Of a stretch of DNA of 64,000 bases, positions 1-5,102 are shown piece after piece. The notes under the pieces were generated by a model that worked only from the letters and a program-made list of their open reading frames with translations, made no database searches and had not been told where the DNA came from. Source of the stretch: Escherichia phage ECO340P2; the sequence record OP172792; one strand, written 5' to 3'. Every line of letters begins with the position of its first letter. The first letter of the stretch is position 1. The translations under genes were made by a program, and so were the position numbers.

Positions 1-34
1 TTTATTTACGTTTAAAAGAAGATGCTCAACATTC

Positions 35-47
35 CCGCCTGTGGCGG
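35..47. repeat. short GC hairpin CCGCC-tgt-GGCGG in non-coding left end
   Basis: inverted repeat read directly. Confidence 0.4.
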
Positions 48-171
48 TAACATTTCGCCCCCAAAAGTATTGACTTTTATTCTATTATGTGCATAGTGTG
101 CAATGTATCGGAATGATGATAATCATCCTCCCATTGCCCCCAATAATTATTGCCATGCTAATGATTTCATA

Positions 172-329
172 TTGTAACCATTACAATGATTATTGTTATT
201 GCGCTAATGCTATGATCTTGGTAATTACATATAATGCTAATAATAAGCCAGCGCAATGAGTGTAAGCGTCATTACGCTTGCAATCATTGCAAGCTACGCA
301 GTAACAAGAAATAACCATCACCGATGGTT
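172..329. repeat. cluster of perfect palindromes (TTGTAAccaTTACAA 172-186; AAGCGTcattACGCTT 264-279; GCTTGCAATcATTGCAAGC 276-294; AACCATCaccGATGGTT 313-329)
   Basis: inverted repeats read directly; region has no credible ORF. Confidence 0.6.
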
Positions 330-910
330 ATGATTGTTGGGGTGTAGTTGGCTTATTATTAGCTCGCTATGTGTCCGGCATAGCGTGCTAATGATGATCC
401 TGGGAATGATTCATTTTGTAATTATTTCATTCAGTCACTATTATGGCAATAGTTATTATTTTAATGGTTTCGTTTGTTATTGTTCGTTAGTTGGTTGTTT
501 TGTCGTGTTATCGTTATCTTGCTTACTATTTATCATGGTTTGATTGTTTGTCGTTATCAATCATCTTGCTATTATTCCTTTGATTATGATTAGTTTGCTT
601 ATTGTTTTAGGTTGTTTGTTGGTTAGTTGTTGCGAACTATTATCAACATTATAATTATGCGCTTATACTGCATAGATAATCATTGATAGATGATAATGGT
701 TATCATTGCACTAACCAGGAAGGAAAACAGTGTTTTTGATGGTTTGTTGTTGGTTGTTGATCGATTTTAACCGTTCTAAATAGCTCTCTAACAGCCTGTT
801 TCCCTGGGAGGTATGGTTATTCGTTTAATGGTTGATTAGCTCGATACCGCGATTTATTCAATTTTGTTCTGTGTCGGTTTTTCATAGGCGAAAGCTATCA
901 ACATTGTTCG

Positions 911-950
911 GGCAAAAAGAAAGGGCGCTTGGTGCGCCCCTTGTTTTGTT
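911..950 (-). terminator. intrinsic terminator (GGGCGCttggtGCGCCC + T-run) downstream of first early gene
   Basis: GC stem followed by TTTCTTTTT on minus strand. Confidence 0.6.
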
Positions 951-4817: not shown

Positions 4818-5102
4818 CTATTTTTTAATGTTTTGCCCTACAAAATCGATCACTTCCTTAAGCTGTCTCTCTGTCATGATCGTACCTGGTAACTCTTCTT
4901 TAATTTCTTCCGGTAAATAGATATTACCGCGCCAGGTTAACAAACAACCGTTTTGATCTTCGCAGATAGAATAAGAAAACATCCACTCGCAATCATTTTC
5001 AAGCTCCCAAAAACACAAAAAGTCTTCTTTCCCTAAGTTTTCAACGGTTAAACATAATCCGCGACGTGCTGCATAATTAGTTAGGCTTTTTGTGATTTTC
5101 AT
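4818..5102 (-). CDS. hypothetical early protein
   Basis: track ORF trimmed to ATG 5102 with AGAAGAGAGAAAAA RBS. Confidence 0.5.
   Translation of the reverse strand: MKITKSLTNYAARRGLCLTVENLGKEDFLCFWELENDCEWMFSYSICEDQNGCLLTWRGNIYLPEEIKEELPGTIMTERQLKEVIDFVGQNIKK

Follow-up and report, generated by a model that had tools for sequence, protein, structure and literature searches.

What occupies the gene-free left end of the sequence deposited for Escherichia phage ECO340P2 (record OP172792)? The window analyzed here is a stretch of 64,000 nucleotides from this phage, read on one strand from 5' to 3', and all positions refer to it unless a relative is named. An earlier note had described positions 1-830 as a non-coding region with clustered perfect palindromes and strand-skewed short repeats, and had offered three explanations for it: a genome terminus or packaging signal, a second origin, or a set of operators. 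We found that the best-conserved palindromes (253-385) are not independent sites but the helices of one element of about 150 nt, referred to below as the folded element (236-388). Its fold is kept by compensatory substitutions and G.U-type wobbles across all the lineages of the subfamily Stephanstirmvirinae that were sampled, and such a covarying fold on one strand is a pattern predicted neither by operators nor by a simple packaging site. The conservation of this strand-specific element at a fixed distance from a terminal repeat boundary is firmly supported. For the locus as a whole, the best explanation, to which we give an even chance, is that positions 1-945 would be the unique-sequence half of a non-coding concatemer-junction (terminus) region of about 1.6 kb in a phAPEC8-like myovirus.

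The structure was predicted for the plus strand with a minimum free energy of -79.1 kcal/mol (z = -8.8) for 236-388, compared with -63.2 kcal/mol for the minus strand. Nine lineages folded separately gave the same architecture, and in each of them the plus strand was ahead of the minus strand by 16-26 kcal/mol. The helices, named P1 to P4, are listed in Table 1. In a MAFFT alignment of 17 sequences, 94.3% of the cells were paired, compared with 25-50% when the partners were slid; 16 pairs were altered on both sides, and the covariation score was 0.213 versus 0.089 in shuffled alignments (0/500). A model-based alignment of 19 loci, which is biased toward the structure, had 96.8% of its cells paired and lay above each of 500 shuffles in all five measures; the MAFFT result agrees with it.

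The cells that depart from Watson-Crick pairing are themselves informative: G.T was found at 13 pair positions (97 cells) and A.C at only 2 (2 cells). In P3a, an unchanging GU faces AU in some sequences and GC in others, and one wobble is kept in every sequence. Such switching is neutral in RNA and creates a mismatch in DNA. Lineage-specific insertions were found at the hairpin tips, including an extra perfect hairpin at the tip of P2 in Justusliebigvirus.

A covariance model detected a single copy per locus, with scores of 130-172 bits, and just one copy in the 64-kb window; the core was likewise present once in each of the 132 phage records recovered by blastn. Further copies came from IMG/VR (4 loci) and metagenomes (6 loci), all within the same phage group, while a scan of GTDB genomes returned only a chance palindrome in a Gemmatimonadaceae metagenome-assembled genome. 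A search of Rfam 15 (E <= 1), including the phi29 packaging RNA (pRNA), gave a spurious snoRNA as its sole match (E = 0.27), and ARAGORN found neither a tRNA nor a tmRNA in the region. The element is apparently undescribed.

Table 1 Features at the left end of the window. A slash in a motif marks the repeat boundary; a slash in positions separates the two arms of a helix.
Feature	Position	Strand	Remark
Last 26 bp of the direct terminal repeat (DTR) of ~328 bp	1-26		By homology only; remainder left of the window
DTR-boundary motif AAAAGAAGATGCT/CAACA	14-31	+	Inferred end or cut between 26 and 27
GC hairpin CCGCC-TGT-GGCGG beside the boundary	35-47	+	Sequence lineage-specific, hairpin retained
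TTCGCCCCC box closing the boundary unit	54-62	+	TTCGCCCC, TCTCCCCG or TCGCCCG in all lineages
Weak sigma-70-like site TTGACT-16-CATAGT (9/12)	70-97	+	Spacing not kept in other genera
Hairpin-rich, fast-evolving spacer	100-235		Palindromes at 115-127, 141-152, 171-187 and 221-228
GCTAATRAT 9-mer cluster	157-395		Direct at 157, 236 and 387; GCTAATGCT at 203; inverted at 355-363
Conserved folded element	236-388	+	Three-way junction and 3' hairpin
P1, 15-bp closing stem	236-250/349-363	+	
P2 arm (253-290)	253-259/284-290 and 261-269/274-282	+	
P3 arm (293-348)	293-299/342-348, 302-307/334-339 and 311-319/323-331	+	
P4, adjacent hairpin	365-372/378-385	+	
C-poor, G/T-rich, essentially unstructured tract	400-830	+	Arrays at 602-632 and 732-761; local hairpins at 437-453 and 690-706
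Conserved block beginning TTGATTAGCTCGATACCGCGATTTATTCA	831-905		Kept in Justusliebigvirus and in Klebsiella and Citrobacter relatives
Intrinsic terminator of the leftward gene block (gene 956-1375/1459)	920-945	-	Usable on both strands in this phage

These results bear directly on the least likely explanation of the region, namely that it is low-complexity filler, or a set of unrecognized small genes, with no specific function. AT-rich DNA does yield many short palindromes, and strict palindromes of at least 8 nt with no spacer were not enriched in the region (4, at 141-152, 221-228, 648-655 and 651-658, versus 5.2 expected). When a short central spacer was allowed (arms >= 6 nt, loops <= 8 nt), however, 11 perfect inverted repeats were counted in 1-830 versus 2.4 +/- 1.6 expected (Markov-1 simulations, 0/500 reaching 11), which ranks this region first among 153 tiles of the window. 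The clustering reported in the earlier note thus holds for hairpins with a short spacer and not for strict palindromes, and its four palindromes within 160 bp do exist, those of the spacer in Table 1 falling inside 114 bp. As for small genes, the relatives' records are mostly unannotated here, while some depositors entered small open reading frames (ORFs). The longest in 1-830 (69, 56 and 41 aa) begin with GTG or TTG and would encode Phe/Leu/Cys-rich products of T-rich DNA, and no PHROGs family was matched by the four longest ORFs of the region, in line with the earlier statement that no credible ORF is present. Given the hairpin enrichment, the strong covariation, and a core that is kept between genera while its flanks diverge, we regard filler or overlooked genes as highly improbable.

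The conservation argument had to be restricted to comparisons between genera. By sequence search, the phage is a Phapecoctavirus: positions 1-1000 are 92-97% identical to about 60 records of this genus, which comprises phAPEC8-like myoviruses with genomes of about 150 kb (subfamily Stephanstirmvirinae). ECO340P1 (97.5%) and BI-EHEC (96.5%) are nearest. Parts of the region were also found by lower-stringency blastn in Justusliebigvirus (phi92-like) and in Klebsiella and Citrobacter relatives. Similarity to phiWec179 shifts sharply at 225-236, from about 70% with indels to the left of ~225, terminal repeat included, to about 95% over at least 2 kb on the right. This change points to a recombination breakpoint where the folded element starts. 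The flanking genes are as similar to phiWec179 as is 236-945, and we dropped the idea that the near-invariance of 236-945 within Phapecoctavirus reflects a special constraint. Since this high identity is regional, only the comparison between genera speaks for constraint, and there the segment 236-400 was the best conserved, with diverging flanks. Some records match these coliphages here with 92-95% identity although they are named as phages of Campylobacter, Acinetobacter, Pseudomonas, Serratia or Salmonella; their host labels may be wrong or may reflect contamination.

The gap without genes measures 1.6-2.0 kb in complete genomes and has, in the orientation of the window, small minus-strand genes on either side. 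The window begins within this gap; its non-coding DNA ends only at ~945, at the terminator belonging to the gene at 956-1375/1459, and complete genomes have about 650 bp more of it to the left of the first window position. Positions 1-830 are thus gene-free, as the earlier note had it, and its limits need to be moved outward on both sides.

Homology to phages with mapped or repeated ends identifies the left edge of the region. The terminal repeat of Schickermooser is 328 bp long (Korf 2019, PMC6563267). A comparison of the two genome ends for terminal repeats, proposed in the earlier note, can be made in this relative, whose record is identical at both ends over 329 nt. The Schickermooser repeat ends with GAACTTGCT, which aligns with positions 18-26 and places the inner boundary between 26 and 27. 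In the orientation of the window, the repeat would run from 302 nt left of the window start to position 26, ending in TTGCT and followed by CAACATTCCCGCC. The DTR of BME3 (Justusliebigvirus) is 342 bp according to PhageTerm (PMC12210895), and the BME3 record starts and ends at positions homologous to the Schickermooser repeat ends; the record of Ro121lw terminates at window position 27. It should be noted that the window includes just the final 26 bp of one repeat copy and that the terminus is assigned from relatives.

The sequence around the boundary is organized as a unit. GCTCAACA (24-31) was without variation across six divergent lineages, and related motifs are found at the two DTR boundaries (AAGAAGTGCT/TAACGCG and AAGAAGATGCT/CAACA). 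The cut motif is followed by a GC hairpin, whose sequence is wholly different in each lineage, and then by a CGCCCC (TTCGCCCC-like) box; a hairpin of 4-9 bp was present at this place in 10 of the 11 boundary units, from 9 lineages. Because the Schickermooser and BME3 ends are homologous and GCTCAACA is invariant, the first 62 nt are assigned to the inner edge of the repeat and a conserved boundary unit. On this sequence evidence, a terminal non-coding region with a repeat boundary between 26 and 27 is firmly supported, and the boundary unit is the likely site of recognition and cutting by the terminase in end formation. A genome terminus or packaging signal, the first explanation in the earlier note, is accordingly supported for the left edge of the region, by homology, while the best-conserved palindromes (253-385) belong to the single strand-specific fold.

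The boundary unit is present once in the window and is tandemly duplicated in tuntematon, L014 and L021. In these duplicated units (positions 4890-4990 of the tuntematon locus, L002), the two copies carry different hairpins, and the AAGAGAAG box occurs as its reverse complement ahead of the second one. In the BME3 record, the left-end sequence, including the folded element up to GTGTCCGGCA, is repeated at 146100-146950, followed by a jump back to sequence that precedes the repeat, which resembles an artifact of assembly at the terminal repeat.

Which molecule folds? The element would act as a single-stranded molecule of plus polarity, and its most likely nature, held with a little less than even confidence, is that of a small structured RNA whose transcription would lead inward from the genome end. 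RNA is favored because it typically shows conserved, freely exchanging G.U pairs, variable tips and multi-helix junctions, all of which come at a cost in DNA. Several observations weigh against it. Scans for sigma-70 promoters in the window, tuntematon, BME3 and phi1_175008 detected no more sites than expected by chance, and none of those preceding the fold was strong; the sole promoter candidate is weak (TTAACA-18-AAGAAT) and ends 9 nt left of the window. No terminator was found after P4, and the plus-strand T-run at 945 is poor outside Phapecoctavirus. The literature searched held nothing on transcription, expression or non-coding elements in this subfamily. The identity of 236-945 within Phapecoctavirus is, as said above, matched by the flanking genes. 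An analogous element in TH18, described below, has no strand asymmetry, and the clustered GCTAATRAT copies, like the GACAC repeats of the Vequintavirinae (spaced by ~10 bp or 53 bp), resemble binding sites for proteins on duplex DNA. The set of operators proposed earlier is likewise unsupported, as no promoter-like site above chance was there to be regulated.

The lack of a promoter would be no difficulty if the fold were used as DNA. In that case, the plus strand would fold when displaced, or when serving as lagging-strand template, as repeat-primed synthesis runs rightward from the boundary, possibly started by the 3' tail of the right end invading another copy of the repeat. The junction would then be a loading or priming signal of the single-strand-initiation type, the GTT-rich tract to its right would offer start sites for primase, and the region would be a replication start zone. 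Such synthesis would displace the very strand that folds, the element lies ~210 nt from the repeat boundary in two subfamilies, the tract has the highest GTT density of the window and is AT-rich and free of structure, and a mirrored skew surrounds the hairpin center of TH18. On the other hand, the G.T pairs, which are conserved and exchange freely, amount to mismatches in DNA, sites for DnaA and integration host factor (IHF) are at or below chance with no long iterons, and the mirrored tract on the other flank is weak in Stephanstirmvirinae. We consider this possibility doubtful, at about half the weight given to a structured RNA.

On the related idea of a second origin, raised in the earlier note, the evidence is mixed. 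DnaA boxes and IHF sites occur at or below chance in the window and are unclustered in the region. Origins of the iteron type carry at least three direct repeats of ~17-22 bp beside an AT-rich unwinding region; here, only 9-mers are clustered, and an AT-rich, structure-free tract is present. Long iterons are missing; clustered 9-mers, the AT-rich tract and a very high GTT content are present.

The short repeats themselves suggest a further explanation, in which repeats and palindromes would be duplex sites for a protein, either a small terminase subunit on a pac or cosB-like array or a repressor, and the structure a by-product. Four of the eight exact GCTAATRAT matches in the 64 kb fall in 157-395 (1.4 were expected for the whole window), and the copies, which are kept across genera, form a cluster of four direct and one inverted. 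ATGGTT is also overrepresented (7 occurrences versus 0.8 expected); no long iteron or longer direct-repeat family was found in the region. CAACA-type repeats follow the boundary in BME3 and in the window, the array adjoins the cut site, and analogous lineage-specific repeats are found in TH18 and LL12, starting in LL12 at the repeat boundary with a spacing of ~10 bp. Left unexplained by protein-binding sites are the compensatory changes in four separate helices outside the 9-mers, the 97:2 asymmetry between G.T and A.C, the tip insertions, and the difference of 16-26 kcal/mol between strands. We see duplex sites alone as an unlikely explanation.

The 9-mers and the fold overlap: the inverted copy forms the 3' arm of P1. 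This arm could instead pair, through wobbles, with the copy at 387-398, which would lengthen P4; these bases are invariant. Other short repeats occur in the vicinity. Directly past the folded element, phage muut (Justusliebigvirus; L004, 2659-2720) has four tandem units of 16 nt (TGTATGAAATGATTAC) and PD06 has one, so the copy number of this unit varies. The motif AATGATTA recurs in the window at 112, 160, 185, 390 and 405.

Outside the subfamily, the Vequintavirinae share the block at 836-900, with ~80-83% identity even there, and also have the large non-coding gap. The DTR of LL12 (Vequintavirus) is 459 bp by PhageTerm (PMC6658697), which corresponds to positions 1467-1925 of the locus. Seven GACA[CT] repeats begin right at this boundary, ~10 bp apart, and a closing stem of 18 bp starts 212 nt past it, the corresponding distance in the window being 210 nt. 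Within this stem lies a three-way junction, followed by a hairpin, with the plus strand more stable than the minus strand by 10.7 kcal/mol. One arm, AACTATCAC-GGGG-GTGATGGTT, is similar to 313-329, and the covariance model scored 21.5 bits at the site of the stem (E about 6e-4). In TH18, the analogous element holds GACACAAT in four direct and one inverted copies. The TH18 locus (L025) is A/C-rich at 1700-2190 and G/T-rich at 2740-2930, giving a mirrored skew around the hairpin/repeat center, between convergent gene blocks.

The G/T-rich tract at 400-830 is of a different kind from the folded element. Its G+T content at 451-630 is 0.76, the maximum of the 64 kb (mean 0.51, sd 0.048; ~5 sd above the mean); Tandem Repeats Finder (TRF) reported two short arrays, one with a period of 11 at 602-632 and one with a period of 10 at 732-761, and GTT reaches 22 per 200 nt on the plus strand, again the window maximum. 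The strand-skewed G/T-rich repeats noted earlier to the right of the palindromes are therefore real. The tract folds no better than shuffled sequence (z = -0.4 on the plus strand, -1.7 on the minus strand), values that rule out a long structured RNA over 400-830. It is nearly invariant within Phapecoctavirus, as are the neighboring genes; in other genera, its sequence is not alignable, yet C makes up only 3-6%. A model in which the tract provides an R-loop primer was rejected on composition: a stable R-loop is unlikely because an RNA of ~55% U gives weak RNA-DNA hybrids.

The tract appears to be a structure-free spacer that separates the folded element from the terminator at which the incoming early operon ends, and it may serve as a Rho entry zone, as the Rho-resistant tail of an outward transcript, or as a loading zone for primase and helicase. 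In the first case, which concerns the tract only, it would insulate the terminus: Rho would load on read-through RNA of the leftward operon and stop transcription before the folded element and the repeat. The minus-strand RNA is nearly structureless (-0.7 to -7 kcal/mol per 100 nt) and contains more C (0.19) than G (0.10), the operon's intrinsic terminator is immediately followed by the tract, and TH18, into whose gap transcription converges from either side, has skewed tracts on both flanks in the matching orientation. However, this RNA is 54% A and 19% C with 9 YC dinucleotides per 200 nt, which is poor for Rho loading, and the low YC content weakens the case for a strong Rho-loading site on the minus strand. 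The mirror version, with a C-poor and Rho-resistant outward transcript, fits equally well. Insulation by Rho is an improbable role for the tract, with roughly one chance in five.

Beyond the tract, the terminator at 920-945 consists of a GC-rich hairpin and a T-run; the minus-strand T-run is present in all lineages, and the plus-strand T-run is good only in Phapecoctavirus. Terminators predicted by ARNOLD are annotated at this position in the Schickermooser and phAPEC8 records. Near-identical terminator hairpins occur at 1484-1500 and 923-939 (GGGCGCTTAGTGCGCCC and GGGCGCTTGGTGCGCCC), after successive small genes, as if a terminator cassette had been reused. The best sigma-70-like promoter of the area, TTGACA-17-TATATT (11/12), lies on the minus strand at 1416-1444, upstream of the gene ending at 956. 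The true start of this gene is probably the ATG at 1375 and not position 1459, as its homolog is annotated as 420 nt.

On the left of the folded element, the spacer evolves quickly. In phAPEC8 and phiWec179, the palindrome at 115-127 is deleted and that at 141-152 is no longer palindromic, while the outer pairing of 171-187 is retained despite altered letters. Close to this spacer, the loop of the hairpin at 88-104 (TGCA-TAGTG-TGCA) is replaced by its exact reverse complement (CACTA) in phAPEC8 and EcG1, and such a loop inversion between close lineages suggests that this hairpin forms in DNA.

What would an RNA do at this place? Its fixed position relative to the repeat boundary, and the iterated 9-mers on its flanks, suggest that the element is linked to the genome end in its role, and from this position we infer a function there, which could be in end processing, packaging or the start of replication. 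Known systems offer partial parallels. Concatemer junctions of the T7 type reportedly combine a short DTR, SRL/SRR repeat arrays, pac sites and an end-processing hairpin. The present region is similar in having a short, non-permuted repeat of a few hundred bp, non-coding, with skewed short repeats and hairpin repeats adjoining it. It differs in that there is no sequence similarity, the phage is a 150-kb myovirus, the fold is a strand-specific, multi-helix structure of 150 nt and not a single inverted repeat, and the adjacent genes run toward the end and not away from it. The cos site of lambda (cosN, cosB, cosQ) and pac sites contain repeated binding sites for the small terminase subunit. A conserved cut site with direct and inverted short repeats beside it is common to both, whereas here the ends are terminal repeats and not cohesive ends, the repeats are only 9-mers, and the covariation and strand asymmetry have no counterpart in cosB.

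Folded nucleic acids offer other comparisons. Single-strand initiation signals, such as the G4 origin, the phiX174 primosome assembly site, plasmid ssi/sso sites and Frpo of the F plasmid, are also orientation-dependent multi-hairpin folds of 70-200 nt on one DNA strand; they serve single-stranded genomes or transfer intermediates, however, they share no sequence similarity with the element, and conserved G.T pairs would be unusual in them. Transcript-primed origins (ColE1 RNA II, T4 oriF/oriG, the T7 primary origin) resemble the locus in that an AT-rich, strand-skewed tract comes after an RNA that is structured or promoter-proximal. Here, in contrast, the downstream RNA would be ~55% U, with weak RNA-DNA hybrids, and no promoter was found.

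The phi29 pRNA (Rfam RF00044) is similar in size (~120-170 nt), in its location next to the genome end, and in having a three-way junction and paired 5' and 3' ends, the fold being a predicted one in our case. It acts on genomes capped by a terminal protein, unlike these large myoviruses with terminal repeats, and the element has no Rfam match; no pRNA-like loop-loop complementarity was found by eye among the P2, P3 and P4 loops. It is improbable, though it would be of particular interest, that 236-388 represents a new class of phage structured RNA, or folded single-stranded DNA, that directly forms or uses the genome end as a counterpart of this pRNA. Guiding the terminase, or the way in which the repeat is duplicated, would be examples of such a role.

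Members of the phAPEC8, phi92 and rV5 groups are commonly obtained when phages are isolated for therapy and biocontrol, and their terminal non-coding region of ~1.6-2.5 kb is blank in most records. The conserved end motif (GCT/CAACA with its hairpin) lets these genomes be oriented and their repeats annotated consistently. Should the folded element, as RNA or DNA, provide a signal for end processing, packaging or the start of replication, it would be a new cis element in a large group of phages and a handle for engineering, for example, as a packaging signal in transducing particles. As an expressed RNA with some other function, it would define a family of phage non-coding RNAs with more than 130 members that is absent from Rfam.

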